A stretch of DNA of 27,891 bases from a virus (IMGVR_UViG_3300047476_000806); one strand, 5' to 3'; shown: positions 9,861 to 27,891, numbered from the stretch's first letter. The notes: generated by a model not told the origin, from the letters alone. Program-made: numbers and translations.

Positions 9861-9862
9861 CG

Positions 9863-11215: not shown

Positions 11216-11218
11216 CTA

Positions 11219-11710: not shown

Positions 11711-11738
11711 TACGAACTTCCTTTTCAATAATAATTAA

Positions 11739-13985
11739 TTAGAATGTACCACCATTTAAATATTCAAATACAGGAGCACCACTGCTACTGATTTGTAATA
11801 CGTGTCCTTCAGTAGAAGAACCCACAGATTTAACAGGGTTAGTACCATCACCGTAAATGATGTGGTTCACACCGATTGTTTTAACACCTAAACCACCATC
11901 AGATACTGAGATAGCGTTGAACAATCCTGAAACGTTACCGCCTGTAAAGTTAGCTTCTAATGTTGCTCTATTTTCAGCACTGTATGAAACTACGTTACCT
12001 GTTGGGTCTGTTGTTTCACCTGTGAATAGTTTGAATACTCCGTCTGAAGCATCACGTACTAAACCAGAGAACTTATCTGAACCATCATTGTATTGACCAT
12101 AGAAACCAATATCTAACAAGTCAGCTACGTTATTTGCGGCTAATTTAATTAGTGAGTCGTCTGTTCTTACTGTAGAAGTATCAATCGATACTGTATTACC
12201 TGAAACGAACAAATCGCCAGCTACTGTTAAACTACCACTGATTGTACCACCAGCAGAATTTAGTTTAGTGTTTGCTGTATCAAAAGCCGCTTGTGCTAAA
12301 ATTGTACCTGTATTTGCTTGGTTATATGCACTATTAGCGTAAGAGCCAGAAGTTACTGCTCGTTGGTCAGCTACTGAAGCATTTGTCGTTGCAGTGTTCG
12401 CTTGACTATACGCTGAGTTAGCATATGAACCTGCTGAAACAGCTTTTTGGTCTGCTGTAGCGGCATTTGTAGTTGCTGTATTTGCTTGGTTATATGCACT
12501 ATTAGCTTGAGTATATGCACTATTAGCATATGATGAAGCGGCTGAAGCGTTTACTGTTGCTGTGTTAGCTTGAGTGTAAGATGCGTTAGCATAAACACCT
12601 GCACTAGTCGCGTACTGAGTTGCAGTATTTGCTTGTAAGTATGCGCTGTTAGCGTAACCACCAGCAATTTGACCACCGGCAACTAAAGCATTATTAGCTG
12701 TAGCAAAAGCGGCATTAGCGTAAGCACCTGCTGTTTCTGCACTTGTTGTTGCGATGTTTGCTTGTTCATAAGAAGCGTCGGCTTTAATACTTGCTGTATT
12801 TGCTTTAGCGTAACCAGATTCAGCGTAACCTAATGTTAAATTAGAATGAGCAAAAGCACTGTTAGCATGAACGTAACCGCTTGTAGCGTGTGCTGAAGCA
12901 CTGTTAGCTACACCATAAGCACCATTAGCGTGATTAATCGGGTCATAACCTCTGATAGAAACCACATCAGAAATTAAGTTTGCTTTAATCGTTGCATATT
13001 TGAATGATGCGTCACTAGTGTCAATGTAGATTGAAGCGTCTGGTTCTAGTAAATAACCATCGTAGAATTTCCAAACACCATCTGAAGCATCTCTGAATAA
13101 ACCAGTGTGTTGATATGTGCCGTCATTATATGCGGCCGCAATACCTAAGTCAGGATTAGCAACGTTGGCATCAGCATTCAGATAAATCATATTATCTTGA
13201 ATTGTCATGTTATTAGCATGAACTGTTGTCGTTGTTCCTGAAACTGTTAAGTTACCATCAATTTGTACGTTACCAGTGATTGAACCACCTGAAGTAGCAA
13301 ATTTAGTATTAGCTAAAGCAAAAGCACCGTTAGCATAAGAACCAGCCGATTGAGCGTATTGTGTACCTGTATTAGCTTGATTGTAACCAGATTGTGCTGA
13401 TAGAGTTGCGGTGTTAGCTTGTTCATACGCTGAGTTAGCATAAGAACCAGAAGTTACTGCTCGTTGGTCTGCCGTAGCCGCATTAGTGGTAGCAGTATTC
13501 GCTTGATCATAAGCACTGTTTGCGTATGAGCCAGAAGTTACTGCTCGTTGGTCTGCCGTAGCGGCATTTGTAGTTGCTGTATTAGCTTGCGTGTAAGCAC
13601 TATTGGCATATGATGATGCCGCATTTGCAGTGTTTCGTGCGAATCCGTCAGTCGCTGTACCTCCAACTGCGTTATTAGCTGTGTTAAAAGCAGATTGTGC
13701 AAAACCTAAAACATCAACACCATCATCAATAAATTGACTTGCTGTAATAATATTAGCATCAATGTTACCACTAGTACTTCTACGAACGATTGTATTTGCA
13801 GTATTAGCTGAAGTTGCGTTGTCTAGTAATTCGGTGAAATATTTACCACCAATTGCCACCACACCAGAACCATCATTAATAAACAATTTATTAGAAACGT
13901 TTGAATAAGCAGGTTCCGCAATATTTAATAACGGTGGTACGCTCGTGACGTTAGAATATTTGAGTTGAATTACTGTATTTGCCAT
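11739..13985 (-). CDS. Long tail fibre protein (748 aa)
   Basis: MANTVIQLKYS head, long Ala/Asn heptad repeats, two GGSITG/GGTISG..GNLTVSG beta motifs each followed by a DIG/DLG...GL.RDASDG..K.(Y/F) domain; ends LNGGTF. Start moved to 13985, 1 nt after the upstream stop. Confidence 0.85.
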   Translation of the reverse strand: MANTVIQLKYSNVTSVPPLLNIAEPAYSNVSNKLFINDGSGVVAIGGKYFTELLDNATSANTANTIVRRSTSGNIDANIITASQFIDDGVDVLGFAQSAFNTANNAVGGTATDGFARNTANAASSYANSAYTQANTATTNAATADQRAVTSGSYANSAYDQANTATTNAATADQRAVTSGSYANSAYEQANTATLSAQSGYNQANTGTQYAQSAGSYANGAFALANTKFATSGGSITGNVQIDGNLTVSGTTTTVHANNMTIQDNMIYLNADANVANPDLGIAAAYNDGTYQHTGLFRDASDGVWKFYDGYLLEPDASIYIDTSDASFKYATIKANLISDVVSIRGYDPINHANGAYGVANSASAHATSGYVHANSAFAHSNLTLGYAESGYAKANTASIKADASYEQANIATTSAETAGAYANAAFATANNALVAGGQIAGGYANSAYLQANTATQYATSAGVYANASYTQANTATVNASAASSYANSAYTQANSAYNQANTATTNAATADQKAVSAGSYANSAYSQANTATTNASVADQRAVTSGSYANSAYNQANTGTILAQAAFDTANTKLNSAGGTISGSLTVAGDLFVSGNTVSIDTSTVRTDDSLIKLAANNVADLLDIGFYGQYNDGSDKFSGLVRDASDGVFKLFTGETTDPTGNVVSYSAENRATLEANFTGGNVSGLFNAISVSDGGLGVKTIGVNHIIYGDGTNPVKSVGSSTEGHVLQISSSGAPVFEYLNGGTF
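13447..13614. repeat. Tandem 84-bp (28-aa) coding repeat; its 23-bp core ccagaagttactgctcgttggtc recurs at 8228, 12346, 13447 and 13531
   Basis: Unit YANSAYxQANTATTNAATADQRAVTSGS; identical 23-mers read directly from the sequence, with 84-bp spacing between the last two. Confidence 0.9.
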
Positions 13986-13986
13986 T

Positions 13987-14217
13987 TTAGAATTGGCCTC
14001 CATTTATATTTGTTATATCTACTTGTGCCGCTGAAATTGGAGTTGACTCGTACTCACCTGTTACCGCATTATATATTAAAGTATCTCCATCCAATCTTGA
14101 TGAAACATTAATTTGTTGTATATCACTGATAGAAACGTTAACTTTAGGTTCAAAGTTAGGTGATGCTATCGTCGTTCTATTACCCGTTCTTACGGTTACT
14201 TTACCAATATTTGCCAT
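13987..14217 (-). CDS. Small virion/tail-associated protein (76 aa)
   Basis: LDGDTLIYNAVTGEYE motif typical of phage fibre-associated proteins; ends INGGQF; tightly packed in the operon. Confidence 0.7.
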   Translation of the reverse strand: MANIGKVTVRTGNRTTIASPNFEPKVNVSISDIQQINVSSRLDGDTLIYNAVTGEYESTPISAAQVDITNINGGQF

Positions 14218-14220
14218 TTA

Positions 14221-14553
14221 TTACCTCGTAACGGATGGAAGCACTGTTGCGATTCCTTCTACAACTCTTGTTACTGTATTTAGGCTGTCAGTTACGATAA
14301 CATCATACACATATCTGCCTGGAGTTATATTTGAGGTATTACTTGCCGGAATACTTAATGTAATTTCACCATTAGCTGTTCCAGTTATAGTCGAATTAAT
14401 AGTGATTGCGGTTGTTGAATAATATGATTTTCGCATCATTGATGAAGTTGTATATCCTGTTAAATTAACAGGAGTACCGTATACGTCTTCAACACTAACT
14501 GTTGAGTTAAATGTTGCGCCTTGTTCAATTGTAATTTCTGAGAATGCCGCCAC
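14221..14553 (-). CDS. Beta-sandwich virion protein (BppU N-terminal-like, baseplate/fibre adaptor)
   Basis: ITIEQGATFN...NLTGY...MRKSY...GEITLSI....T..ITPGRYVYDV...RVVEG.ATV.P.VTR pattern. GTG start with AAGGA SD. Confidence 0.75.
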   Translation of the reverse strand: MAAFSEITIEQGATFNSTVSVEDVYGTPVNLTGYTTSSMMRKSYYSTTAITINSTITGTANGEITLSIPASNTSNITPGRYVYDVIVTDSLNTVTRVVEGIATVLPSVTR

Positions 14554-14576
14554 TATATAATCCTTTTTTTATATAG

Positions 14577-14584
14577 TATTTATA
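14577..14584 (-). promoter_or_regulatory. T4-like late promoter TATAAATA
   Basis: Perfect consensus in the 37-nt gap right after the rSAM cluster, 24 nt upstream of the 14553 start. Confidence 0.75.
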
Positions 14585-14590
14585 TAAATT

Positions 14591-15160
14591 TTATCTTGAA
14601 TTGAATAGAAATAAGTCTGTTGGAACAGCTAATCTGATATTACTTTGATATGTTGTTACATAATGATATAAAAAACTAGGAAAGACTACTATTTGACCGC
14701 AAACAGGTTTATGTTTTAGTGGAGCAAACCATTCTTGAAAACTTAAATCATATCCTCTATTGGCATTTTGTCTAGGGTCAGTAAAAACTATTTCACCGCC
14801 AGATTCCGAATCGTCAGCTATAAGATACAAAACTGAACTAAGTTGACTTCCTCTATGATTATGATAATTGAGTGCCTGACCTTGAGCATATGAAACTAAC
14901 CAACCATTCATCTTATGACCGTGCCAATCATCAATATTTTTATTCAATGTTTGATTTAAGTATGAATTAAAAGCTGGTTTAAATATATCATTCTTAACTC
15001 TTTGCATTTCTGGTTTTTCAAGTAAAGAATCATCAGCACTTTCTTTACCAACCAAAGTATCTTTATTCATCAACAAATAATTGATAGTGTAATCCAGTAA
15101 TTCGGTATCTGTAACATCTTCAATTAATACCGACGTTTGCCAAAGATTAAGCATACTCAT
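14591..15160 (-). CDS. 2OG-Fe(II) oxygenase (TIGR02466-like)
   Basis: NGW, YHNHRGSQLSSVLYL, GGEIVFTDPR, VVFPSFLYHYV and a terminal R (NIRLAV). Confidence 0.85.
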   Translation of the reverse strand: MSMLNLWQTSVLIEDVTDTELLDYTINYLLMNKDTLVGKESADDSLLEKPEMQRVKNDIFKPAFNSYLNQTLNKNIDDWHGHKMNGWLVSYAQGQALNYHNHRGSQLSSVLYLIADDSESGGEIVFTDPRQNANRGYDLSFQEWFAPLKHKPVCGQIVVFPSFLYHYVTTYQSNIRLAVPTDLFLFNSR

Positions 15161-15560
15161 TTAACATAAACTCTTCATCAAAATAACTTCTAACATGAGG
15201 AACCATTCCTTTTGTTACATCAAAATTTAAATAATCTATAGATTCCAATATTTGATTATAGACACCTTTGTTTTCACTATAAGGTAAGAAGTATGGGTCG
15301 TTACCATATAACAAATCTTTATCATTTAAACAGTCGATGAAGTCTTCACCAAATGTTTCAGATATCCATCTAGCGTAGCAAATTGCGACCATATAACTCT
15401 TAGCTGGATATACCCAACCCATAGTACTATCAGTGAAGTATCGTATCGCATCATCAACAATATTATTTGACAATAGAATATTTTTAGTCTTCAAGTCATC
15501 ATCATGTTCTGTGTGTAGTCTATGAAAAATTTCTTGTCTAACTTTCCAGTCGTTCATCAT
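15147..15560 (-). CDS. Hypothetical protein (137 aa) in the rSAM cluster
   Basis: Intact ORF overlapping both neighbours; no motif recognised. Confidence 0.75.
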   Translation of the reverse strand: MMNDWKVRQEIFHRLHTEHDDDLKTKNILLSNNIVDDAIRYFTDSTMGWVYPAKSYMVAICYARWISETFGEDFIDCLNDKDLLYGNDPYFLPYSENKGVYNQILESIDYLNFDVTKGMVPHVRSYFDEEFMLNEYA

Positions 15561-16461
15561 ACCAATCCAAAAGTAATTTAAAACCGTTGCAACTATTAGT
15601 TAAAGATTTAACATCTCTCAAGTGTTCGGATAAACAGTTGCCATAATATTTACAGTTTGAACAGAATTTATTTTTAGAAACTCTCTTCTTTTCTGTCTCA
15701 CACCACTCAAAATATTTATCTAAAGAATCATATTCTAAGAAAAATTCATTATCATTCAAATCGAATTCCAGTACTCCATATTTTCCTGATGGTGTAATGT
15801 ATATATGATTGTCTGAAAAACTGTTTCTTTTCTTCTCAAGTGATGATATAATTAAAGATTCGTTTGTTAGTTTGAAGTTTTTATCTGTGTTGATAATCCA
15901 CTTCTTAACAAATTCTTCAAAGTCTGAAAACTTAACGTCATATTGATTTGCTTGATTTGTGCTGTATGGTTTTATCTCTACTGATTCTAAATTTGTAAAC
16001 GTATTCAATACTGATATCATCTCATCAACGTTTTGTGTTAGTAATTTTGGTGAGGCTAACATCAAAATAGAAAATGGTTTGTTCAGTAAAGCCATATTCT
16101 TCAAAACTAATTCATATGATTCTCTAGCTTCAAAATCAAAACTAACCGACGTATAAACTCGTTTATCGATAGTAATTTCATTTATCATCGATAAATTAGT
16201 GATTAAATTTATATCTTGTATACCGTAAATTTGCAGTATACTAATAAAGTCGTTCCAGTAGTCTTTAGGTAATAAGCCAACTTCACCGCCATATACATCT
16301 ACCATTTCAATATCAGTTGTCTGCACAATTTCTGCTAACATCTCGGATAATCTGTCTAATGATAATAGCTTTTTATCTCTTAATTGTGTTTTCGTTAGGT
16401 AACAAAAGTCACAATCAAAGTTACAAAAGTACCAAGGGTTAATAGATATGTTCATCGACAT
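15538..16461 (-). CDS. Radical SAM protein 4 with reduced auxiliary Cys motif
   Basis: CNFDCDFC (CxxxCxxC), YGGE and C-terminal CSNCKYYGNCLSEH...SCNG. Start may be 16455. Confidence 0.85.
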   Translation of the reverse strand: MSMNISINPWYFCNFDCDFCYLTKTQLRDKKLLSLDRLSEMLAEIVQTTDIEMVDVYGGEVGLLPKDYWNDFISILQIYGIQDINLITNLSMINEITIDKRVYTSVSFDFEARESYELVLKNMALLNKPFSILMLASPKLLTQNVDEMISVLNTFTNLESVEIKPYSTNQANQYDVKFSDFEEFVKKWIINTDKNFKLTNESLIISSLEKKRNSFSDNHIYITPSGKYGVLEFDLNDNEFFLEYDSLDKYFEWCETEKKRVSKNKFCSNCKYYGNCLSEHLRDVKSLTNSCNGFKLLLDWYDERLES

Positions 16462-17506
16462 ATTCTGTCACCTCTAAATCTAGTCCATTAGCTTCGATAA
16501 TGTCACCCGCTAATGACTTCATTTTGAAACAATGTACTTCTACTAGATTGTGTGTTTTCAAATCTTTGATTGTCTTCTTACAACCATTACATATCTCAAA
16601 CATAGGACATGTGAAGCAAGATTGTTTCAAGCTTTGTAATTCAGGTTGAAACTTTAATGGAAATATTTTATTACCAGACATCTCTTCTTTGAAGTCGATT
16701 GAATACTCTCTATCATCACCAAAAGCACCGCAAGAATAATAGTCGCCTGATGGTTGTAATGTTCTAATATTCGAATCACAGTTTCTATTTTGTGGGCAAG
16801 ATGTTGCATTACCTTTTAAACGCTTAATCATTTGAAGCGTATTATATTCCCAATGATGTAAATCTTTTTTCCAGATTTCCACATAAATTTCATATATGTC
16901 TGCTAATAAGAATGGTTTACCTTCTTGTCCCATTATGATATTCTTGAATTTTACTGGAGGACCTGAAGAAAGTGCGTAATTAAGTTTACACTCAACACCC
17001 ATTTCTTTAGCAAGTTCCACATTCTTGATTGCCATATGACAGTTTTCTTCAGTGATTACTGAAATGAAATCAGGTCTATATCCACAGTGTTCAAGCATTG
17101 CATCAGATACATTCCAAAAGTCTTCTTCACTAAATTCAGATAAGTCGCCTTTTAGTCTACCGCCACCATACTGAAATGATGTTGTTACTCCAACACGTTT
17201 GTGGTTGAATAAGTCTTTCCATTTTTCAGGATTCTTATAGAACGGCCATAAGTTTGTTGTTAGTGATAAAGTTGCTGGTGAATTTATTGCGTCTAGATGT
17301 CTGATAATTTTCCAGTAGTATTCTGGTTCCATCATCAATGGGTCACCACCATTCACTATGATAGTGTTCGTTTCTGGAAATCGTTCTAAGAATTGAAAGA
17401 TGTAATCATGGTCAAGTTCAGCAGTTTTATCTTCTGTTATTTTAGTGCTAGAACAAAACGTACATTTGAAATTACATTTCTCAGTAGGTTTAATTATTAA
17501 TTCCAT
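16439..17506 (-). CDS. Radical SAM/SPASM protein 3
   Basis: IKPTEKCNFKCTFC, NGGDPL, CPQNRNC...PSGDYYSC and CFTCPMFEICNGC...HC. Confidence 0.92.
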   Translation of the reverse strand: MELIIKPTEKCNFKCTFCSSTKITEDKTAELDHDYIFQFLERFPETNTIIVNGGDPLMMEPEYYWKIIRHLDAINSPATLSLTTNLWPFYKNPEKWKDLFNHKRVGVTTSFQYGGGRLKGDLSEFSEEDFWNVSDAMLEHCGYRPDFISVITEENCHMAIKNVELAKEMGVECKLNYALSSGPPVKFKNIIMGQEGKPFLLADIYEIYVEIWKKDLHHWEYNTLQMIKRLKGNATSCPQNRNCDSNIRTLQPSGDYYSCGAFGDDREYSIDFKEEMSGNKIFPLKFQPELQSLKQSCFTCPMFEICNGCKKTIKDLKTHNLVEVHCFKMKSLAGDIIEANGLDLEVTEYVDEHIY

Positions 17507-18498
17507 TTATTGTCCACATAATCATATACTTCTTTCAACCAACATTCTTCTTGTGTTCTAGCATCTTTAATATGATTACTCAAGAAACATCCTAAAGAAC
17601 ATCTATTAAAGTGTTCACATTCTAAACATTTATAATCATCAAACCAAGCTTGCTCTAAATCTTTTTTAGATGGAATCAACTTGATAGGTATAACACCCTT
17701 TAGCAGTATATCGCATCGACCAAAGTCTTCGTTTGGCATGATTGTGTATGTGTCCATACATGACATGTTTTGTTTTGTTTTGTTGTTGAAACCATTGAAT
17801 GGACTACAGTTAGGCCAAACATCATACATATATTTCATGAAGTTTCTAAGTTCGTAGTCTTTAGGAAGCAAAACATCCATATGCTTTTCTGGAGTATAAT
17901 AATCAAAGTATACTGGAAAATGTTTGTATAGATAGTCGAAGAAAGGTACAACGTTAGTCACAAATCTATCAAGATTAGGTTTAGTCATAATTACATTGAC
18001 TGACCTAATATGAGGAGTAAACTCAAATACATTTCTTGTGAATAATTTGAATGTATCAACATTAAAACGACCTGAGGGGTCATAACTAGTATACAATTTA
18101 ACTTTAGTCTTTTCTAAGAAAGCACTAACTCGTTGTGTATTAGTCCAAATAAAGTTAGTCGTGAATTGAACACTGACTTCGATATTATTATCTGAACAAT
18201 ATGATTTGATAGAGTGTACCAATATCACATAATCATCATATACACTATCAGGTAACTTATCAGAAAACACTTCACCACCCATAATATTAATGGTGAATAC
18301 TGTTTTACCTTTCTTTTGTAATTCTGCGATTGCTTTTTTGATAGGTTCTATCTTGTCTTTGATTGTATCAATACCTGCCATACTGTTATGGTCTTGAGCA
18401 CAAAACAAGCATGAGATATCACAGTACTCAAATAGAGTCACAATAATCTCACCTGTTTCGGTTCTCTTAGTATTGTTAATTACTTTTTCTGCAATCAT
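17497..18498 (-). CDS. Radical SAM/SPASM protein 2
   Basis: FEYCDISCLFC, MGGEVF, SCMD...GRC and CLECEHFNRCSLGC...EC. Confidence 0.9.
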   Translation of the reverse strand: MIAEKVINNTKRTETGEIIVTLFEYCDISCLFCAQDHNSMAGIDTIKDKIEPIKKAIAELQKKGKTVFTINIMGGEVFSDKLPDSVYDDYVILVHSIKSYCSDNNIEVSVQFTTNFIWTNTQRVSAFLEKTKVKLYTSYDPSGRFNVDTFKLFTRNVFEFTPHIRSVNVIMTKPNLDRFVTNVVPFFDYLYKHFPVYFDYYTPEKHMDVLLPKDYELRNFMKYMYDVWPNCSPFNGFNNKTKQNMSCMDTYTIMPNEDFGRCDILLKGVIPIKLIPSKKDLEQAWFDDYKCLECEHFNRCSLGCFLSNHIKDARTQEECWLKEVYDYVDNKWN

Positions 18499-19130
18499 TT
18501 AATTTTCCACTTATAAGAGAAAGCAAAAGTATATCTATTAACATTTGCTTTCAATTCTTCAACTTTATGCATAAACAAAGGATTATCATTATTAATAATT
18601 ATCATCGTTCCTGCGTTCGGTAATATCTTAGTCGTATACTTATGCTTGTTTAAAAGTTTCTTAGTAACAGATAAACTTCCACCATAAGATGACTTCCATT
18701 CTGTTTCAGTAAGATAGCATAACACTAATGTGTTTGTGCCGTCTATCACATCTTGGTGATAGTCACCACCTTCTGCACCATTCCATAGATGTATATGTGA
18801 AATTTCGTGTATAGGTCTAACTATACGCAAAAAATCAAATATAGAATTGTTTATTAGTTTTTCAGATAATTCTTTTAAAGAATCGGGACATCGTTCTAAA
18901 TTCAATCGATTTGCTCTATATTCAAATTCCATGTGAGCATCATCACCTTGAATATCGACAGGTTGACCTTCTATATACCAATCAGGAACTGTTTTGAATA
19001 CCGATTTACTTTTAATCCATTCTGTTGTATATATTTGCATCCAGAAATCAGACATCAACTCATCAGGTATTTTTGTATTTACAAAACCTTTTTCGTAGTA
19101 ATCAAATCCAAGATTTGCTAATTGATTCAT
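18495..19130 (-). CDS. 2OG-Fe(II) oxygenase (prolyl-hydroxylase-like)
   Basis: HxD (YHQD), LCYL...W..SYGGSL, distal His (FMHKV) and RYTFAF. Confidence 0.85.
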   Translation of the reverse strand: MNQLANLGFDYYEKGFVNTKIPDELMSDFWMQIYTTEWIKSKSVFKTVPDWYIEGQPVDIQGDDAHMEFEYRANRLNLERCPDSLKELSEKLINNSIFDFLRIVRPIHEISHIHLWNGAEGGDYHQDVIDGTNTLVLCYLTETEWKSSYGGSLSVTKKLLNKHKYTTKILPNAGTMIIINNDNPLFMHKVEELKANVNRYTFAFSYKWKIK

Positions 19131-19620
19131 GATTCCAATTCACTATAAAGTCAAAACAAGCTACAATTCTTCTATGTTCGGTGTAACCTGCTCTATGTAA
19201 TATTTTAGGATTATCATTTAATACAGCGATTAATTCACCATATCTAGGATAGATGACATCATCACCGACATACAATCCACCTTCTTTTATTTCACTCATA
19301 TCATTAAAGTAAAGTAAAAAGAATACGTTTGATGGTTCATCAGCATCAGAATGAAACTGGCAAAATTTAGAATCTTTTGGTAGATTACCTTTTATGTCAG
19401 ATTCTAATAATTCATATGAATGTGCATAAGGTTGTATGTATGTTAGTGCTATTTGATTGTGTAATACATTCAACATAGTCTTAACATAATCTTGATTGTT
19501 AGTAGGAAGTCTACTAATATGAGAAGTTTTAGGGTCAAACTCTAAATCATCAACCTGTAATTGGTCTGCTAAATCTGTTGCTAACCAATTACAGTATCCA
19601 TTTTTAAATAACGAGTGCAT
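19102..19620 (-). CDS. 2OG-Fe(II) oxygenase
   Basis: FHSD, FLLYFND, EGGL, distal His (LHRA) and RRIVACF. Confidence 0.8.
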   Translation of the reverse strand: MHSLFKNGYCNWLATDLADQLQVDDLEFDPKTSHISRLPTNNQDYVKTMLNVLHNQIALTYIQPYAHSYELLESDIKGNLPKDSKFCQFHSDADEPSNVFFLLYFNDMSEIKEGGLYVGDDVIYPRYGELIAVLNDNPKILHRAGYTEHRRIVACFDFIVNWNHESISKSWI

Positions 19621-19621
19621 A

Positions 19622-20704
19622 TTATCTTATTAAATAAGCTTTCAATTTCTCAGGTGATTTGACATTTTGTAATACGTAATCAATAAAATAGATATTGATA
19701 TTTTCTAAATCAATTGTTGAACAGAATGGTTCTTCAGCAACACACTCATTAGCAATAAATGCATCTAAGTCAGCATCAGTCAATTCTGTTTTACGTACAT
19801 ATTTTAAATATGATTGAAAGTATTCTTTATATTCTAATTCAGGATATACTTTATTAATAAATGAATCCAACAATACAATATCAGCATCACTAATAGATTT
19901 CAAATCAATGTTTGATTGTTTACCAAATCTAGGTGTACCTATATGACTCATGAAACTAGAGTCATTGATAATTTTAAGTGCAGGGTCTGTACTATAAGCA
20001 TCAATATTATCAAAAGTATTTAATGTAACACCAAGTCTATCTGTAAATTGTTTACGTAATAGTTTTCTATTCACAGTATACTTGGCTTCAATAATAGTTT
20101 GTTCGATTTGACGTTTAACTAATTTTTGAATTGCTACTTTTAATTTAGCTTTTTGAGTCTTATTATAAACATAAGATGATAACAAGAATTCAATACTTAA
20201 GTTGTATCCTACAGTAGTAAGAATATCTGTTGCTTCAGCTACAGTCACTGTTGTTTTACCAAAGACTGCTTCCCATTCAGCAAGTGATGGTTCGAATGTG
20301 TCGAATGCATCAAAGTCTTTAGTCTCTAAACTTCCAACAAGTTTTTCTCTATCAAAGTGTGCTTTAATAATTTTGTGAGCAGAAACAGAATCGATGTTTG
20401 CAAAAATAGCTTTGAACCAAGCACACACAATAGTTAAGAATGCTGATTGGTCTGCATAGATAACAAAAGGACGGTCATTTGTATCATTTTGTTGCGAGAT
20501 AGTTTTAAGTAATGAAAAAACACTTTCGTATTCTTTACCTTTACCTACAATCTTTGTTATATCATCAACGTGATGTAATACTTCACCAATAGATACTTTA
20601 GTACCATCAGGCATACCCACAGATTTAGATATAACCAATCTATCGTTTTTAACATCAATCAACGAATCGATTTGAATGTAGGTTTTCTTAAACAGGTGTA
20701 ACAT
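19622..20704 (-). CDS. Hypothetical protein (360 aa) in the rSAM cluster
   Basis: Long intact ORF overlapping the upstream gene and 1 nt from the next; no confident family. Confidence 0.8.
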   Translation of the reverse strand: MLHLFKKTYIQIDSLIDVKNDRLVISKSVGMPDGTKVSIGEVLHHVDDITKIVGKGKEYESVFSLLKTISQQNDTNDRPFVIYADQSAFLTIVCAWFKAIFANIDSVSAHKIIKAHFDREKLVGSLETKDFDAFDTFEPSLAEWEAVFGKTTVTVAEATDILTTVGYNLSIEFLLSSYVYNKTQKAKLKVAIQKLVKRQIEQTIIEAKYTVNRKLLRKQFTDRLGVTLNTFDNIDAYSTDPALKIINDSSFMSHIGTPRFGKQSNIDLKSISDADIVLLDSFINKVYPELEYKEYFQSYLKYVRKTELTDADLDAFIANECVAEEPFCSTIDLENINIYFIDYVLQNVKSPEKLKAYLIR

Positions 20705-21416
20705 TAATTAACTCCTCTAATTCTTTTACAGAATTTTGTTTTGCTTCTATGTATTCTTCGTTTTTAAATAATTGTTCTGAGATACCTACTGTTAACATAT
20801 ACATTGGGTTATTATTGTTAGCCCAATAAGAATACATGTTTTTACCTTTGAACATATACTCATCAAAATATTTAGAGTAGAATCTCAAACTACTTTGGTC
20901 AATACGACCGAATAATGTATAGAAAAACTCATGTTTCAGTAAGCTTACAAAGTTAATTCCTTCGTTGCTATCTGTATTATCTTCAGGAAACTGCTTCACA
21001 TAATTCTTCATTTCTTCAGAATCGATAATGTATAGATTATACAAAATCAAACTATCAATTCTAGAAACCCATTTCTTAACAATCTCAATGTTGTCTTCGA
21101 TAAATTGTTTATAAATTGTTGAGTCGGTCATGCTCTTTAATTCAAGCATAATTAAAATAACTTCTTTTTCTAAAGAAGTCACGTTCAACAACATGCCACT
21201 ATGTAAATAATCTTTAATTAATTCTAATCGTTCTTGTTCTGAACAATCTTTAAAATCTATATCTGCTGGTATATCAAGATTACTTAAATAAGTCAGTAAC
21301 TTAGAACCTTTTAATGTACTATTAGCATAATCAATCTGATAAGATATTGATTTATCTGTAAAATATTGTTTTAGATTGTCGATTGATATAGGTGCTACTG
21401 TTCTCACTAAACTCAT
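20688..21416 (-). CDS. Hypothetical protein (242 aa) in the rSAM cluster
   Basis: Intact ORF starting 6 nt after the CHxx-repeat gene stop; no confident family. Confidence 0.8.
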   Translation of the reverse strand: MSLVRTVAPISIDNLKQYFTDKSISYQIDYANSTLKGSKLLTYLSNLDIPADIDFKDCSEQERLELIKDYLHSGMLLNVTSLEKEVILIMLELKSMTDSTIYKQFIEDNIEIVKKWVSRIDSLILYNLYIIDSEEMKNYVKQFPEDNTDSNEGINFVSLLKHEFFYTLFGRIDQSSLRFYSKYFDEYMFKGKNMYSYWANNNNPMYMLTVGISEQLFKNEEYIEAKQNSVKELEELINVTPV

Positions 21417-21422
21417 AATATA

Positions 21423-21992
21423 TTATCTTCTTCCTCTTGAACCATGACAATTTGAATGACAAGAAGCATGACATACATTAATTTGAACTGTAACCGTCTG
21501 TGCTCTTGCATTATTTAAGATATCTCTTAAGTGACTAAAAAACGACTCTAAATTACCAGCAGATACATTTTGTCCTGCATCTACACCCATAGTACTCCAA
21601 CCAAAACCTTGTAAATAGTTTCCGTTTAGGTATGCAATCGCCGTAGCATCATAAACATATCCTGGTGTTGGTCGTGAGCCTGTATTACCACCGCCGCCAT
21701 CAACAAATAATAATGCTCTCAAATTTCTGATATTCGTATATGCATAAGTTTCGTTTACTAATGCATTAACAATTGAAGAAGCTGTGACTAAACTTCCTGT
21801 AACTCCTACACTTCCTCCATTGATACCGATGCCTTTACCAGAAGTGTAACCACCAAAATAGTTACCATCAAACTCAGCAAATGGATATGCATTATATCCC
21901 CAAGCAATATTTGAGTTTCCTGTTGCAACAACATAGTCAGCAAATCTGTCAACAATATTCTGTGGGGTAATAGGATTATCTAGTGATGCCAT
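21423..21992 (-). CDS. Putative modification substrate: Gly/Asn/Tyr-rich 189-aa protein with C-terminal (CHxx)3 motif
   Basis: Ends VCHASCHSNCHGSRGRR*; all three Cys in the protein are in this tail; overlaps the rSAM1 stop. Confidence 0.75.
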   Translation of the reverse strand: MASLDNPITPQNIVDRFADYVVATGNSNIAWGYNAYPFAEFDGNYFGGYTSGKGIGINGGSVGVTGSLVTASSIVNALVNETYAYTNIRNLRALLFVDGGGGNTGSRPTPGYVYDATAIAYLNGNYLQGFGWSTMGVDAGQNVSAGNLESFFSHLRDILNNARAQTVTVQINVCHASCHSNCHGSRGRR

Positions 21993-23037
21993 TTATTATC
22001 CAAATCTTCTTTTTAGTGTTAGTCTTCAGTTGTCTCATTAAACTTTTTGGAGCACCGCAAACATCATCTTGCCATGATAACTGGTGACAATCGCCACCAC
22101 AATATTCAAAAACATCACAAGAAAAACATCTAGTGTCTCGTGCACGTTCGCAAGCAATATTTTGTACTCTAGTAGGACTATTTATAAGAGTTTCTATAGA
22201 ATCATCTAGATGTCCAAATTGAAACTCCGGTGCCGAATTAGGACATCCAGATATACTTCCAGTTGCATTAATCGTGAATATCTTTTCTTCACAGTCTCGA
22301 CAGAATGTGCCACCTTTGGTGAAGTTGTTTTCAAATTTCTCATAAACAATCTCTAAAAACTCATTATCAAACCATTCTCTAGCACCATATTCTTCAGATT
22401 GATTATGCATCTTTAAGAACCATGCATCTTGTTCTATGTTAGATGGAAATATTTCAGGATGCAAATTAGCATTACCATTACCCGTAAGTCGTTCGAATGC
22501 TAACTCTTTGACACCTAAACTTCTTACCCATTCCAGTAATTTGATAGGCTCAATCTCGATAGTATCTTTAGTAACACTAATAAAAAGTTTTATGTCAACG
22601 TTTTTTTGAACTAAAGTCTTGACATTTTCAGCCCATAATGTAGATTGCTTTTCGTTATCGAATCTAATCTTAGGGTCCCAACTAGTGCCTAATCTATTAT
22701 TCAAACAATTTTTAATAAAATCTATTTTATCATCAGTTAGTTTGAATACTAAGTTTGTAGTAATACCCCATGACATCTCAGGAAATAAACTTTTACATTC
22801 ATTCCATACATATCTCATTTGTTCTACAGGTGCTAAGAAAGGTTCACCGCCATGAAACTCACAGTGTAGAGAATCTTCTTTGATTGAGTCTTTTCGATAT
22901 TCAGCAAATCTTTTAATCCAATTTGCTACTTTGATATGATTCCAATAGATTTTAGGTCCATTGATTCCATTGGTGAAACAGTGCTTACAATTAAGGTTGC
23001 ACGTTTCGGTCGTCTTCAGATAAAACATCCAATTCAT
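21976..23037 (-). CDS. Radical SAM/SPASM protein 1
   Basis: YLKTTETCNLNCKHC, FHGGEPF, CRDC...INATGSISGCP and CFSCDVFEYCGGDC...VC (canonical Cx2Cx5Cx3C). Confidence 0.95.
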   Translation of the reverse strand: MNWMFYLKTTETCNLNCKHCFTNGINGPKIYWNHIKVANWIKRFAEYRKDSIKEDSLHCEFHGGEPFLAPVEQMRYVWNECKSLFPEMSWGITTNLVFKLTDDKIDFIKNCLNNRLGTSWDPKIRFDNEKQSTLWAENVKTLVQKNVDIKLFISVTKDTIEIEPIKLLEWVRSLGVKELAFERLTGNGNANLHPEIFPSNIEQDAWFLKMHNQSEEYGAREWFDNEFLEIVYEKFENNFTKGGTFCRDCEEKIFTINATGSISGCPNSAPEFQFGHLDDSIETLINSPTRVQNIACERARDTRCFSCDVFEYCGGDCHQLSWQDDVCGAPKSLMRQLKTNTKKKIWIINGITR

Positions 23038-23515
23038 AACTAATCACTTTATCTTTTAAAAAATGTTCTAAACCGAAACTGAGCATTAATGAATCTTCTT
23101 TATTTAATGCTTCATGAGGAGTATTAGCAGGAATTAATACTGATTGATTTGGACCAATACAGTGTTCTTTAGAATCTATATTCATCCACTTAATCCCGGC
23201 TACACCGAGAATTATAACGTCATCAGGGTCAGTGTGCAAGCCAAAACTAACAGAATCTTTGAATGCTCTAAAAGCATGACATGACACAGGACCATCATGA
23301 TTATATTTGATTGCTAATTCTTTACAGAAATTAAAAATACTTTGATTGTATTTTTCCATCTGTTCTATCTTAATAGTGCAGGCATTGTATTTGTACAAGT
23401 CACCTAGACTATTAAGATATATTTGTTTACCGTCTTCATCAATAACAGATATAATATTTTGTTCGTAAACTAATTTAGAGTGAACAAAATTCTCAAACTC
23501 AAGTAATGAAATCAT
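22991..23515 (-). CDS. JmjC/cupin-type 2OG hydroxylase (RoxA/YcfD-like, minimal)
   Basis: HAF...SFGLHTDPDDVIILGVAGIKW (HxD...K) and LIPANTPHEA...SLMLSFG (distal His). ATGA overlap with the upstream fibre stop. Confidence 0.82.
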   Translation of the reverse strand: MISLLEFENFVHSKLVYEQNIISVIDEDGKQIYLNSLGDLYKYNACTIKIEQMEKYNQSIFNFCKELAIKYNHDGPVSCHAFRAFKDSVSFGLHTDPDDVIILGVAGIKWMNIDSKEHCIGPNQSVLIPANTPHEALNKEDSLMLSFGLEHFLKDKVISYELDVLSEDDRNVQP

Positions 23516-25224
23516 AGAATAACGGCTTCAATCATTCCTTCAACAGTATTGATTGATTCAAGAGCAATCGCAAATTTATTTTCACCAGAACCAGCTATAG
23601 CATAACCATCTTTAGTTGAAATTAAAGTTTGGCCTTTATTAACTGGACCAAGAACTTTAACTGGAACACGACCACGCAAGGCGATTGGTTGGCCTTCGCT
23701 ATCATTATTCATTAAGTAAGCTGGATTTTCAGAAATAACTCCAAGAACAACTTGAGCATCATCATATGATTGAGTAGCTTCAGAAGTTTCTACTGTTGAA
23801 ACAACAATAACTGTACCAACTTCATATTCTTGGTCGGTTGTATATTTCTCAGCCAAGTCGGCGTATCTTGCTGTAGTTGCTGTACCACTAAACAATGCCG
23901 CAGTTACTGTATATCCTGAAACATTAACATCGGCTGTTACTGTTAGAGCACCGGTAACTGTACCGCCAGATTTAGGTAAAGCGTTTCCTGCTGTTATAAA
24001 CGCTGAGTTAGCTACAGCATAAGCACTATTAGCATATGATGAAGCACTAGCCGCATTAAGAACCGCAGTGTTTGCTCTAGCGAATGCTGAGTTAGCATAT
24101 CCACCAGTAATTACACCACCTTGTAATAATGCTGTATTTGCAGTATCAAAAGCACTGTTTGCTTTGATGAAAGCTGAGTTAGCATAACCACCAGTAATTA
24201 CACCACCTTGAAGTAAAGCTGTGTTGGCTAAAGCAAATGCCGCATTAGCATAAACACCTGTTGTATTTTGACTTACATAAGATGCATTAGCATGTAAGTA
24301 TGCATTGTTAGCATAACCACCAGCAGTTAAATAAGCAACTCTTAATGCACTTGCTGTAGGAATTAATGATGTATTAGATGAAACTGGTGAATCGATAATT
24401 AAAGATTCATCAACAATAGAAGAAATGGTTGCTGTATTTCCTCTTGTGATTTGCCATACATCAAATTGTTCATTCCAAATAATAGAAGCATTATTGCCAG
24501 TATTTCTTTCATTCGTGATATATGCATTTTTATCTACTAATGTATTTGCATTAAGTGTTAACGTATCTGTTGAAATAACAGTGTTACCTACTTGAGTGAA
24601 TGTACCTCGAATAACAAAGTCACCTTCAACGATACCGTCACCGTATACTGTTAAGAAAGTGTTAACTGTAGCAACATCACTAGATAACAATCTAGTACTA
24701 ATGTTATCTGTAGTAATTGTGTCTGTGACATATACGTTAGAATTTGCGTATACATTATTAGCAATTAAAGTGTTTGCTGAAGCAGTACCTAAAACCTCAA
24801 TGTTTGTATTTACGATGCTTGAATTAGAAGATAAGCGGTTACTAACTATTGTACCACCAAAAGAAGCACTAGCATTAACAGTAAGAGAATTTACAGTTGC
24901 ATTGTTAGCAACGTATAATGAAGTGTTAGGACCTAATACAGATAACTCTCTACCAATAACAACGTTACCTGTTTGTGATGATTGAACACCGATATCAAGT
25001 TCTCTACCGATAATAACTTCAGATTGAAATAAAGCAGTATTAGAAACTTGTAAGCCAACACCATTTGCAGTAATAATCATGGTAGAATTATTACTTAAAA
25101 TCAATGTACCGTCATACTTAGTATAAGTACCTGACTCAAGTTTATTCAATTCCAACGCAGATTGGTTGGTCTGAATTCTCCATTCATCAATAGTGTTGGT
25201 TCTTGCAATGGTTGATATTGACAT
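23512..25224 (-). CDS. Tail fibre/appendage protein with C-terminal intramolecular chaperone (Peptidase_G2-like)
   Basis: TNTIDEWRIQTN head seen in T4-like virion proteins, beta-helix-like middle, ANSA repeats and RYADLAEKY...GVISENPAYLMN...IALRGRVPVKV. Confidence 0.85.
   Translation of the reverse strand: MSISTIARTNTIDEWRIQTNQSALELNKLESGTYTKYDGTLILSNNSTMIITANGVGLQVSNTALFQSEVIIGRELDIGVQSSQTGNVVIGRELSVLGPNTSLYVANNATVNSLTVNASASFGGTIVSNRLSSNSSIVNTNIEVLGTASANTLIANNVYANSNVYVTDTITTDNISTRLLSSDVATVNTFLTVYGDGIVEGDFVIRGTFTQVGNTVISTDTLTLNANTLVDKNAYITNERNTGNNASIIWNEQFDVWQITRGNTATISSIVDESLIIDSPVSSNTSLIPTASALRVAYLTAGGYANNAYLHANASYVSQNTTGVYANAAFALANTALLQGGVITGGYANSAFIKANSAFDTANTALLQGGVITGGYANSAFARANTAVLNAASASSYANSAYAVANSAFITAGNALPKSGGTVTGALTVTADVNVSGYTVTAALFSGTATTARYADLAEKYTTDQEYEVGTVIVVSTVETSEATQSYDDAQVVLGVISENPAYLMNNDSEGQPIALRGRVPVKVLGPVNKGQTLISTKDGYAIAGSGENKFAIALESINTVEGMIEAVIL
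24086..24229. repeat. Tandem 87-bp (29-aa) coding duplication, second copy partial
   Basis: ANTALLQGGVITGGYANSAF occurs twice; ccaccagtaattacaccaccttg at 24101 and 24188. Confidence 0.85.
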
Positions 25225-25230
25225 AGCGGC

Positions 25231-25461
25231 CTATTTTTCTTTTACTAATAAATTTTTTAATAATTCTTTTATTTCTGATAAATCAGCATTCAAACTTTGA
25301 ATATCTTGTTTAATACTATTTATCTCATGTGATTTAGAATTAAGATTGTTAGCCAATCTTTTTCTAGCTTCATTTTGCTCTATTGCTGTTTTATTTACAG
25401 TCAATAGAGCATTTGTAGAAGTATCTTTAACGTATGGTGTACCTTCAACTGGAATCAACAT
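25231..25461 (-). CDS. Small conserved T4-like phage protein (76 aa, C-terminal coiled coil)
   Basis: MLIPVEGTPYVKDTSTNALLTVN...IKQDIQSLNADLSEIKELLKNLL. Start moved to 25461, 1 nt after the upstream stop. Confidence 0.75.
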   Translation of the reverse strand: MLIPVEGTPYVKDTSTNALLTVNKTAIEQNEARKRLANNLNSKSHEINSIKQDIQSLNADLSEIKELLKNLLVKEK

Positions 25462-25462
25462 A

Positions 25463-27889
25463 TTATTCTGCCGGTAATGCAATGATACGCAAGTCTTTAA
25501 CTTTAGGCACAATTGCTGAGTCGTTAGAAACCATCAATATCTTAATTGCGAATGTTTTAAACGTATCATAAGTAACACCATCGTCTGAAGTATATGTTAC
25601 TTGATTTTCAGTTAATGAAGGACGATATTCATATTCACGATAGTCTGCATCAGTTTTTGATGGAGTTGTTGTTGGATTAGCACATACCATTTTTTGGTAT
25701 GGTCTATTTTTAAACTCAGTACCATCAGAAGCTGAAAGAATCTTGTAGAATACATGAACTTCAGAACTACCCATTTTGTTTGCTGATAAGAACACACGCA
25801 AATCGCCAGAATCAAAACCATCAGCTAGAGTGATTGGTTTAGTGATGTATCGAGCGTCACAAGGACCACCAGAACTATCAAATTCAGAATTCAATACGAT
25901 AGTTGCATTTGCACCTGTAGATGAGTTGATTGTGATTGAGTAGTCATCAAGGTAGTTAGAACCTCCAGAAACTACATTCACACCAACCACATTACCGTTA
26001 GCACCATCAACTACTAAGTAAACGTTTGCACCAGAACCAGTTTCTGAGTTCACAATAATAGTGTTTGCGTTTGAATAACCTGAACCTGATTCGATGATAT
26101 TAAAGTCTGAAGCTTCGATAATACCATCATCAACAAAGTTTTCCCAAGCATTCAAGTATAAACTCTCTAATGAAATCAATGGTGAAACGGCATCGTCAGT
26201 TGTCGCCATTTGAATTTGTACTGTGAAATCACCTTTAGCTAATAATTCTTTACGGCGATATCCAACAACATACAAATCATCATCACCAAATGAATATGTC
26301 AACTTAGGAATAAAGTCTCTGTATGCAGTTTCTTTTGCTGAATCAACAGGTTTAGAGATGAATGAGTAATTTGTTGACATCACAGTTTCGTTCATAGGAA
26401 CAATTGAAGTTTCTAATAAACGGAATTTGTCCATGTATTTCTTAGATGATTGTGCTGTGCTTTCTAAAGCAAAGGTACCAACATTTTTAGAGAATACGCA
26501 TCTATTCAATCTGAACATGATATCTTCGTTAATATATGGAGTATATTCCATAGTATTTTGAGATTTATACATTGTTCCCAAGTATGGTTGTGATGAAACA
26601 AATTGTCTACTTGTTGTAATCTTACCTTTTTCAGCAACCCATAATGACGTATCAGGAGTATCTGATAATACAACGAACGCATACAATCCAGGCTTCAAGA
26701 ATACTGGTGATGGGAACGTAAATTTAGTTGCTGTTGAAGCATTAACTAATGAAGGACTTTGAGAAACATTAATTTCACTAGGATACTTAACAACAACAGA
26801 TTCAGGATACCAGAAATCTGAAGAAGGAACTCCATTCACAGTAGGTCTAATTTGAACCATTACTGGAATGTTTTCATCATCTTTAGCTTTGAAGTATAAG
26901 TCAACACTTTCTAAGAACATTCCGTTTGGATAAACTGCTTCATCAACAAAGAATGTTTGTGCTAATGGGTCAACTCTCCAAGTACTTGTGATTCTAGAAG
27001 TTGAAACTGTTTTTTGTAGAATTGGTGAAGTCACTGAACCAACAAGCTGAGGACTAACATCAATATTATATACAGTGTTTACTAGATTTGTTTTATCAAC
27101 TTTCAATCCGTTTGCAACATATGTTTTCTCACTGAATGAAATAGCTTCAGTATCATATGTGTTGTTGAAAGATTCAGTTAATCTGAATTTTCTTTCGCCT
27201 GAACGGAATGTTGCTTTAGGTGGAATAAACACACCTGAAGCTTGACCTAGTTTATTTGTTCTAACATTACCTAAACTGTAAATCCAAGAACCACTTCTAT
27301 TAGCTAATGATGTATCTGTATTAACTGTAGCAACTTTAGTTGTAGTATTGTACGCAATAACAGTGAATTCATTACCAACACCACCATTTTCAGAAGATGA
27401 TTCGTAAATTAAAGTTAATGTGTTACCTGCAATATTTACGCTAGGAGCATCTGCCGCTAATGTAATTGTGTTTGCAGTAACACCTCTTGTAATACCTGAT
27501 TGGTGGTCAACTACTGAATTGATTGTGAAGTATTTACGTGAGTCGATACCATATACAAGTTTACCTGTTAAAGGTTTACCTGTGCCGTTTACGATACTTA
27601 CGTTAGCTGAACCATTTTCAGAATTTGTAACAGTTACCAAATCAAAACTTGAACCACCAGCATTGAAACTTGCTAAATTGGCTGCCAAGTCTGAAGATGT
27701 ATTTGCAATTAAACAATATTCAGTGTTTAGAAGAGTTGTGTTTGCGTTTAACGCAACTTTATTTGGTACAACAATGTACTTGTTAACATCAACATCATCA
27801 AAGAATGAATACATTCTTGTATTTGGACGCATTGAACTTGCGTTAAAGATGATTGGTTGTGGTTTCAAGTAAGGTTGAATCGCAATATC
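25463..27889 (-). CDS. Large virion structural protein (DUF4815-like), 5'-truncated by the window edge
   Basis: Frame is open to the edge (DIAIQPYLKPQPIIF). VDPLAQTFFVD...GMFLESVDLYFKAKD..PV.VQIRPT.NGVP, GSGY repeats and a C-terminal FAIKILMVS....VPKVKDLRIIALP. Confidence 0.85.
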   Translation of the reverse strand, partial: DIAIQPYLKPQPIIFNASSMRPNTRMYSFFDDVDVNKYIVVPNKVALNANTTLLNTEYCLIANTSSDLAANLASFNAGGSSFDLVTVTNSENGSANVSIVNGTGKPLTGKLVYGIDSRKYFTINSVVDHQSGITRGVTANTITLAADAPSVNIAGNTLTLIYESSSENGGVGNEFTVIAYNTTTKVATVNTDTSLANRSGSWIYSLGNVRTNKLGQASGVFIPPKATFRSGERKFRLTESFNNTYDTEAISFSEKTYVANGLKVDKTNLVNTVYNIDVSPQLVGSVTSPILQKTVSTSRITSTWRVDPLAQTFFVDEAVYPNGMFLESVDLYFKAKDDENIPVMVQIRPTVNGVPSSDFWYPESVVVKYPSEINVSQSPSLVNASTATKFTFPSPVFLKPGLYAFVVLSDTPDTSLWVAEKGKITTSRQFVSSQPYLGTMYKSQNTMEYTPYINEDIMFRLNRCVFSKNVGTFALESTAQSSKKYMDKFRLLETSIVPMNETVMSTNYSFISKPVDSAKETAYRDFIPKLTYSFGDDDLYVVGYRRKELLAKGDFTVQIQMATTDDAVSPLISLESLYLNAWENFVDDGIIEASDFNIIESGSGYSNANTIIVNSETGSGANVYLVVDGANGNVVGVNVVSGGSNYLDDYSITINSSTGANATIVLNSEFDSSGGPCDARYITKPITLADGFDSGDLRVFLSANKMGSSEVHVFYKILSASDGTEFKNRPYQKMVCANPTTTPSKTDADYREYEYRPSLTENQVTYTSDDGVTYDTFKTFAIKILMVSNDSAIVPKVKDLRIIALPAE

Positions 27890-27891
27890 AG

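Follow-up and report, generated by a model that had tools for sequence, protein, structure and literature searches.

What does a run of twelve genes, most of them for radical-SAM enzymes and oxygenases, do in the middle of a phage structural operon, when is it expressed, and where does its product go? These questions are raised by the viral DNA IMGVR_UViG_3300047476_000806, of 27,891 nucleotides (nt); "the window" here means that whole stretch. Every gene in the window is encoded on the minus strand, and the twelve genes (g1 to g12, 14591-23515, together called the cassette) stand between a gene for a tail fibre of 570 amino acids (aa) and a gene of 110 aa. They comprise one cupin, four radical-SAM paralogues, three 2-oxoglutarate-Fe(II) (2OG-Fe(II)) oxygenases, g3, and the unassigned g4, g5 and g11, and neighbouring genes overlap or are separated by at most 6 nt throughout. 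An initial annotation had proposed that the cassette is expressed late, alongside assembly, and that its product stays on an intact protein instead of being a secreted ribosomally synthesised and post-translationally modified peptide (RiPP); our analysis partly supports this interpretation. The account that we favour, and hold to be moderately probable, is that a late-transcribed module modifies the C-terminal tail of g3 and that the whole of g3 enters the particle, probably in connection with a fibre that ends in a Peptidase_G2 (G2) domain. The features on which this account turns are the following.

21423-21992, minus strand: g3, 189-aa candidate substrate and virion protein, in which a folded alpha/beta body (residues 1-173) precedes a disordered tail
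21426-21473, minus strand: C-terminal tail of g3, CHASCHSNCHGSRGRR, the presumed modification core, which holds all three Cys of g3
21976-23037, minus strand: g2, 353-aa radical SAM/SPASM enzyme (Pfam Fer4_12, TIGR04085, phrog_1802)
22179-22186, minus strand: internal TATAAATA in g2, 194 nt upstream of the g3 start and conserved upstream of g3
22991-23515, minus strand: g1, 174-aa putative cupin metalloenzyme, JmjC-like, with an invariant H94-x-D96...H134 triad and K109
23512-25224, minus strand: tail-fibre gene, 570 aa, no Cys, with an N-terminus common to cassette-less relatives and a cassette-specific distal part
23515-23859, minus strand: predicted Peptidase_G2-type domain at the fibre C-terminus, about aa 456-570 (PF11962 matches of homologues, PDB profile matches)

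Related loci that carry the cassette were fetched via g3 (80 kept of the 151 relatives found), and cassette-less relatives via the 110-aa gene. The g3 family comprises 548 protein clusters at 90% identity. Between marine T4-like phages, Atu_ph07 and the phiKZ-like RSL2 the body of g3 falls to 23-29% identity, while the last 16 residues, which follow the pattern CHxSCHxxCHxSRxRR, are essentially invariant. Residues C174, H175, S177, C178, H179, C182, H183, S185, R186, R188 and R189 are invariant in all three groups, and also across 61 homologues (H175 in at least 90%). The three Cys stand amid Cys-free structural neighbours, since among all fibre-like and small structural proteins on either side (7702-14553 and 23512-25224) the only Cys is one in a 298-aa protein (7702-8598). 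In the AlphaFold2 (AF2) model the alpha/beta body has a pLDDT of 85.4 and the tail, at about 42, is disordered; the 173-residue body holds 13 invariant and more than 45 nearly invariant positions.

A homologue of g3 has been detected in virions. The virion proteome of Atu_ph07 lists gp170, the g3 homologue of 31.9 kDa, with 8 unique peptides and 35% coverage, and gp170 has its maximum in gel band 1 along with proteins of 87-127 kDa, whereas twelve other virion proteins of 29-32 kDa peak in bands 7-8 (PMC6102473 Table S5). Not in that list are gp164-169, gp171 and gp172, namely the enzymes together with the g4 homologue and a pair of small proteins that match nothing in the window (PMC6102473 Table S5). 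The G2-domain fibre gp176 peaks in band 4 with proteins of 51-56 kDa (PMC6102473 Table S5) despite a predicted mass of 66 kDa, which fits the loss of its chaperone domain. As we read them, these data support an intact virion protein in a form of high mass that resists sodium dodecyl sulphate (SDS). Together with the folded, conserved body of g3, the presence of gp170 in virions upholds the initial view that the product stays on an intact protein.

The ligands in this tail admit another explanation, in which g3 is a Cys/His carrier of metal or Fe-S clusters, or a metal-zippered tip, and the enzymes act on the fibre, on another virion protein or on a small molecule. The ligand-rich (CHxx)3 is a classical motif of this kind, the auxiliary clusters of four radical-SAM enzymes would impose a large Fe-S demand, and T4 fibre tips use His-coordinated metal ions; moreover, that the tail of g3 is modified is something we infer. 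We nevertheless consider a carrier or metal tip unlikely, because g3 follows and overlaps the SPASM enzyme g2 directly in every locus, because it is the sole Cys-bearing protein in an otherwise Cys-free neighbourhood, and because three tail repeat units are set against four radical-SAM paralogues. Presence in the virion also speaks against a purely catalytic helper.

One clade (L157-L159, e.g. L158:8318-9686) has a split g3, in which a 308-aa protein combines the N-terminal ~55 residues of g3 with a long Gly/Ser-rich stretch, and a separate 140-aa protein carries the remaining body and the CH tail.

The position of the cassette among structural genes was examined next to its downstream anchor, which is given here with the motif that precedes it.

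14221-14553, minus strand: 110-aa structural or fibre-assembly gene ('QGATF'; phrog_1084, phrog_3304, synteny), downstream anchor of the insertion site
14577-14584, minus strand: TATAAATA, located 31 nt upstream of the 110-aa gene, conserved in relatives

The initial annotation had regarded the cassette as inserted between two structural genes, and had proposed looking for the fibre gene directly followed by the 110-aa gene in phages without it. This arrangement was found in the closest relatives (L006, L009, L010 and L011, at 68-72% identity), which share the gene order of the window, namely large structural protein, small protein, fibre, 110-aa gene, 76-aa gene and further fibres, and have no cassette. 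Their fibre gene ends 1-10 nt before the 110-aa gene in L006, L010 and L011, and in L009 it is a second short fibre gene, after the first, that ends at this distance. Most of the ~80 cassette loci carry the cassette at the same site, between fibre gene and 110-aa gene, and the comparison as a whole supports the view that the cassette is an insertion or deletion between two structural genes.

Its upstream edge, however, lies elsewhere than first thought. With cassette-less fibres the window fibre shares only residues 1 to ~110-180, and its residues ~435-570 match only cassette-adjacent fibres (46-57% identity) and Atu_ph07 gp176. Against PF11962 (Peptidase_G2) the window fibre scores 21.3 bits, below the cut-off of 25, but 26 of 31 aligned homologues of this domain match the family (best E 8.9e-9), and a profile of the domain matches PDB 3gqh, the cleaved C-terminal domain of phi29 gp12, as well as chaperone domain D4 of the Klebsiella phage depolymerase Dpo31. 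The start of the fragment that phi29 gp12 releases is aligned with an invariant D-L-A-E, and this alignment predicts cleavage before D456, between YA and DLAEKY. Judged by these matches, the C-terminal domain is a Peptidase_G2 intramolecular chaperone, for which autoproteolytic release is predicted. It always occupies the extreme C-terminus, in fibres of 193-2440 aa. A hidden Markov model of the domain finds it within 10 kb in 62 of the 80 cassette loci and in none of 79 cassette-less loci; six or seven of the 18 cassette loci without a match are contigs that end just upstream of g3. The fibre tails at the same position in cassette-less loci carry Peptidase_S74 in eight of nine cases. Since the cassette-linked fibre end thus differs from the cassette-less one, the boundary of the module lies inside the fibre gene and not at the junction of fibre and g1, and the notion of an insertion between two structural genes stands with that correction. 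Atu_ph07 gp176 matches the G2 domain as well (hhalign E 2.7e-28); in RSL2, ORF065 has no G2 domain and no G2-domain gene was found within 9 kb. A complex prediction for the fibre G2 domain with g3 returned an ipSAE of 0.00, which gives no verdict and is not evidence either way.

With respect to transcription, the initial annotation had pointed to a perfect TATAAATA just after the last cassette gene, and this copy does stand 7 nt past the g12 stop codon (TAA, 14591-14593), upstream of the GTG at 14553 that starts the 110-aa gene. In the whole window TATAAATA is no more frequent than chance (7 copies, 7.0 expected); six copies are on the minus strand, and two of these (9853-9860 and 14577-14584) fall in the ~260 nt of intergenic DNA. 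Its positions are nevertheless conserved in relatives. The spacer that separates the 110-aa gene from the last cassette gene contains TATAAATA in 25 of 29 unique related cassette loci, and among unique cassette-less relatives of the 110-aa gene it is found in 27 of 66, always 13-42 nt before the start, while any other arrangement of the same letters occurs in at most 5 of these 66 upstream regions. On the evidence of this conservation, TATAAATA behaves as a late promoter of this phage group, and the copy at 14577-14584 would be the ordinary promoter of the 110-aa gene. The earlier suggestion that it restarts the structural genes is therefore right in that it precedes the 110-aa gene, but nothing about it is specific to the cassette.

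A further copy of the motif appears to serve g3. Of 63 unique related loci, 59 have TATAAATA inside g2 at most 400 nt before g3 begins, compared with none for its reverse complement and 10 for the best of 55 other permutations, and the opening ~660 nt of g2 contain it in just 1 of 65 loci. Its distance upstream of g3 differs by clade (~173-203, 222 plus 25, 33-48, or 94-97 nt), and where it overlies the conserved (L/V)-I-N-(S/N), the synonymous choice is fixed at each of the four residues, whereas the codons around them vary. A position that shifts between clades, together with fixed synonymous choices amid varying codons, argues for selection on the DNA at this site. Thus g3 appears to have its own late promoter within g2; the motif and its selection are observed, and its activity is what we infer from them.

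The enzyme genes, in contrast, appear to be read through from upstream. The fibre reading frame ends with TGA at 23512-23514 and g1 starts with the ATG at 23515, so that the two share ATGA at 23512-23515, just as the initial annotation had stated, and no room is left for a promoter. There is no TATAAATA at this junction, and in loci with a co-directional upstream fibre gene the motif is absent within 200 nt before g1, with one exception. In the phage of the window the operon extends further upstream and includes a 76-aa gene, a 2060-aa DUF4815 protein and a gp8-like gene; together with the fibre gene they make up 8.5 kb before g1 with a single TATAAATA, at the far end, and no canonical late motif occurs between the gp8-like gene and g2. 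A scan of 11000-27891 for sigma-70-type promoters gave 68 sites where 83 were expected, with no enrichment and no intergenic candidate. Because TATAAATA is missing before g1 and the lone copy lies far upstream, the enzyme genes appear to be transcribed by read-through from the late baseplate/fibre operon. Late expression alongside assembly, as first proposed, is thus supported by the late motifs and by the lack of promoter room, although it is not uniform: g3 seems to be promoted separately, and a sigma-70-like site is present in the minority clade described below.

Several variants of this layout were observed. L101, L140 and L164 carry the complete cassette in reverse orientation, still flanked by the two structural genes seen elsewhere, and a G2-domain fibre follows downstream on the opposite strand; g3 retains TATAAATA ~94-97 nt upstream in these loci, and the short divergent spacer before g1 has a TATAAT-like site only. 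L106 also has an opposite-strand fibre after the cassette, as in the inverted loci, and its 110-aa gene was not seen. An extra open reading frame (ORF) of ~70 aa (MTITINGKEYDETKF...) lies between the cassette and the 110-aa gene in L005 (14513-14762), L062 (9757-10001) and L026 (4630-4912), and in L026 it is preceded by TATAAATA beside a perfect TTGACA-N17-TATAAT site. In the window itself, a 93-aa ORF with a TTG start (25231-25512) has a 50-nt overlap with the upstream gene; public assemblies of the same phage give it a later start and 76 aa.

The other cassette genes, with the families to which they were assigned, are as follows.

20688-21416, minus strand: g4, 242-aa conserved protein (phrog_20767), found in every cassette, jumbo phages included
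19622-20704, minus strand: g5, 360-aa fast-evolving protein, a cassette core member by locus comparison
19102-19620, minus strand: g6, putative divergent 2OG-Fe(II) oxygenase (H90-x-D92...H142...R151), whose homologues match PF13640
18495-19130, minus strand: g7, 211-aa 2OG-Fe(II) oxygenase (PF13640)
17497-18498, minus strand: g8, 333-aa radical SAM paralogue of g2 (phrog_1802)
16439-17506, minus strand: g9, 355-aa radical SAM/SPASM paralogue of g2 (PF04055)
15538-16461, minus strand: g10, 307-aa radical SAM paralogue of g2 (PF04055)
15147-15560, minus strand: g11, 137-aa conserved protein (phrog_20737 in PHROGs)
14591-15160, minus strand: g12, 189-aa 2OG-Fe(II) oxygenase (PF13759)

All four radical-SAM paralogues have CxxxCxxC near the N-terminus, at residue 13 in g2, 26 in g8, 11 in g9 and 13 in g10. 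Matches to g2 were Fer4_12 (24.1 bits, cut-off 22), the TIGR04085 SPASM model (34.2 bits, cut-off 27) and phrog_1802 (E 2.9e-65); g9 matched PF04055 (41.9 bits) and reached 25.2 bits with TIGR04085, just under the cut-off of 27; g8 matched phrog_1802 (E 1.7e-38) and g10 PF04055 (32.5 bits), and NCBIfam detected no SPASM domain in g8 or g10. The oxygenases g7 and g12 scored 32.1 bits with PF13640 and 48.7 bits with PF13759 (cut-off 27 for both). We class g6 with them through its relatives only, as a divergent 2OG-Fe(II) oxygenase, because 13 of its 17 homologues match PF13640 and H90, D92, H142 and R151 are conserved; the kinship of g6 to g12 by hhalign was weak (probability 38%). Below its cut-offs with PF08007 (20.8 bits, cut-off 22) and Cupin_2 (21.7 bits, cut-off 27), g1 has as its best profile match the quercetin dioxygenase-type cupins (E 2e-11), with MINA53 at E 1.3e-5, and by these matches and its conserved H94, D96, K109 and H134 it is assigned as a cupin metalloenzyme, which may or may not belong to the JmjC hydroxylases of the RoxA/MINA53/NO66 branch.

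The nearest NCBIfam models of g2 and g9 are peptide maturases (PapB, DynA, DarE, CXXX-repeat, HxsB/C, cyclophane-formers), and all these scores lie far under the family cut-offs. Resemblance to peptide maturases raises the possibility of a RiPP-like effector, in which the body of g3 would be a long leader and the modified tail of ~16 residues would be cut off and released at lysis as a metal-binding or antimicrobial peptide, the cut being made by a protease of the host or by one that escaped recognition among g4, g5 and g11, the three cassette proteins without an assigned function. A core that is C-terminal and disordered would suit such a peptide, and lysis would make an exporter unnecessary. 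We searched the cassette for a protease or exporter at several levels. With Pfam, PHROGs and NCBIfam no peptidase or transporter family was found for any of the 12 proteins; Pfam searches of 17-56 homologues each of g4, g5, g6 and g11 gave no recurrent family except the 2OG-Fe(II) oxygenase of g6; and PDB sequence profiles for g3, g4, g5, g6 and g11 gave nothing below E 0.7. The AF2 model of g3 matched no known fold (Foldseek against PDB, E >0.5; VIA-align Z <=3.9), the confident AF2 model of g4 matched no peptidase fold (Foldseek E >0.3; VIA Z <=5.0, over residues 1-58 only), and for g5 and g11 the ESM Atlas gave no usable match, its own models being poor. No membrane segment was detected in any window protein (maximum 19-residue Kyte-Doolittle mean 1.54), and no RiPP recognition element (RRE) was found in the cassette.

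The initial statement that the cassette has no peptidase, ABC transporter or membrane gene thus agrees with the family, profile, fold and hydropathy searches of the 12 genes, including those of the unassigned g4, g5 and g11, which gave no protease or transporter match. It is valid for those 12 genes only, because the fibre end with the G2 domain travels with the cassette, and this predicted self-cleaving domain of the upstream fibre is the only peptidase-type domain that our comparisons place there. The G2 peptidase family cleaves its own chain, and we therefore think that the domain is not a leader peptidase. The lack of any peptidase signal, the family scores far below their cut-offs, a 173-residue body that is confidently folded and conserved and so unlike a leader, the 35% coverage of the homologue in Atu_ph07 virions, the apparent dedicated late promoter of g3 and the location of the cassette beside a specific fibre terminus together make a released peptide improbable in our judgement.

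The cassette is widely distributed. At least 150 viral contigs encode a relative of g3, and the cultivable carriers are phages of Agrobacterium, Sinorhizobium, Ralstonia, Burkholderia and Pseudomonas. A megablast of 14000-25300 against 50,697 phage records gave no match. Across 185,579 species genomes there was one cassette match, L164 (NZGN01000038.1), a 113-kb contig in a metagenome-assembled genome labelled Marinovum sp.; its phage gene order and fibre genes make a phage origin probable, and a Rhodobacteraceae host is hinted at weakly at best. Homologous blocks have been published, as annotation only, in Atu_ph07, Phosso, RSL2, RSF1, FLC phages, S13 and a Pseudomonas jumbo phage, and our literature search for functional studies of the jumbo-phage cassettes found only annotation lists, in which no function is proposed (PMC8066314, PMC11898562). 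The phiKZ-related Ralstonia phages RP12 and RP31 have an annotated run of radical SAM, Fe-S oxidoreductase, MoaA-like and MgoB-like genes (PMC5468394), which is possibly a further variant of the cassette.

Among the cassette loci the number and place of the oxygenase genes vary, and the block might be seen as an auxiliary metabolic island that has settled in a hyperplastic structural region and is unconnected with the building of the virion. Marine T4-like phages commonly carry 2OG-Fe(II) oxygenases among their accessory genes. The core order g1-g2-g3-g4-g5-g8-g9-g10-g11 is, however, fixed across T4-like, Atu_ph07-like and phiKZ-like phages, and with the link to one type of fibre terminus, the late promoter motifs and the homologue in virions, it leaves a metabolic island very improbable.

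In the mechanism that we propose for the modification of g3, g1 and g2 would be transcribed by read-through from the fibre operon, and g3 would receive additional transcripts from the putative promoter embedded in g2, as might be expected if more of it is required than of its enzymes. The radical-SAM enzymes and oxygenases would then act on the flexible CHxSCHxxCHxSRxRR tail, and to judge from weak family resemblance the likely chemistry would be thioether or C-C (cyclophane-type) cross-links together with hydroxylations on Cys, His or Ser. No leader would be removed and nothing exported; instead the modified g3 would enter the particle whole, probably at the G2-domain fibre or close to it, a placement suggested by the Atu_ph07 virion proteome and by gene linkage. 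A more specific version, which we put forward tentatively and hold to be somewhat doubtful, is that the cassette installs cross-links or a metal-binding cage in the (CHxS)3 tail of g3 and so produces an SDS-resistant, fibre-associated tip or adhesin that needs the fibre end exposed by the G2 domain. The cassette would then be a swappable host-range module of marine T4-like and soil jumbo phages.

Several points weigh against the modification and packaging of g3 as we propose them. The virion evidence comes from a distant homologue, which BLAST aligns over only ~60 C-terminal residues at 34% identity, and the peak of gp170 in the top band could reflect aggregation. The tail is a putative substrate and could simply bind metal; a novel protease may be present among g4, g5 and g11. 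About 12 assessable cassette loci, and RSL2, have no nearby G2-domain fibre. Finally, in a minority clade (L146, L148, L151-155) with a divergent upstream gene, a TTGACA-N17 overlapping TATAAATA precedes g1, and this sigma-70-like site suggests that transcription there may be early.

If the proposal is true, the assembly of phage particles would include a class of post-translational chemistry new to it, and an 'orphan' gene block that recurs in jumbo-phage annotations would be accounted for. The fibre locus would have two states, a G2 chaperone with the cassette or an S74 chaperone alone, which may matter for host range in the ocean. The proposal would also raise the question of how O2-sensitive and O2-dependent enzymes cooperate late in the infection of aerobic hosts. 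The cassette is common, as the numbers of g3 clusters and contigs indicate, and because cultivable phages carry it the idea is directly testable at the bench.

Radical SAM/SPASM maturases are associated with secreted peptides and a few cellular enzymes, and our literature search found no paper describing them acting on a virion component. The nearest likeness to the window is in jumbo phages (Atu_ph07 gp164-gp172 and RSL2 ORF066-077; also RSF1, FLC6, S13 and Phosso), which have the same order of cupin, radical SAM enzyme, tail protein, g4 homologue and further radical SAM enzymes. Their enzymes are 42-63% identical to those of the window and their tail proteins have the same invariant CHxSCHxSCHxSRxRR terminus, while the bodies are almost unrelated. 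The jumbo-phage cassettes also adjoin virion genes, that of Atu_ph07 lying beside its G2-domain fibre, whereas RSL2 has the 9 kb around its cassette free of G2 genes.

Among enzymes of known function, the radical SAM RiPP systems with repeat cores (CXXX-repeat, His-Xaa-Ser, ranthipeptides/SCIFF, triceptides) resemble the cassette in the core itself, since that of g3 reads CxxxCxxxC and three times HxS, and in the weak matches of g2 and g9 to TIGR04115, HxsB/HxsC, PapB and YhhB/FxsB/XyeB. They differ in that the 'leader' of g3 is a folded domain of 173 residues, that the searches revealed no RRE, peptidase or exporter, and that the product is probably whole and in the virion. Another parallel is offered by anaerobic sulfatase maturase (anSME) and by QhpD, which acts on the gamma subunit of quinohemoprotein amine dehydrogenase (QHNDH): like the cassette enzymes they have CxxxCxxC and SPASM, and their protein substrate stays in the final assembly. 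Their families TIGR03942 and TIGR03906 are among the g2 matches, again with scores far under the cut-offs (44 vs 349 bits). As proposed for the cassette, anSME needs no leader peptidase; the QHNDH system has a protease and a transporter. Unlike anSME and QhpD, the cassette would devote four radical-SAM paralogues and four oxygenases to one tail of 16 residues, and would do so in a phage late operon.

For the fibre side of the proposal we know of no radical-SAM chemistry in the fibre-tip systems of the T-even phages or phi29, but both offer a parallel in architecture. The Peptidase_G2 auto-chaperone of phi29 gp12 shares with the window fibre a C-terminal chaperone domain of a fibre or appendage that is cut off, a step that is predicted here. 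In T2 and T6, C-terminal processing of gp37 goes together with the adhesin gp38, a small Gly-rich virion protein encoded just downstream, and g3, likewise a small Gly-rich candidate virion protein encoded downstream of a fibre with a predicted cleavable end, is probably associated with that fibre.

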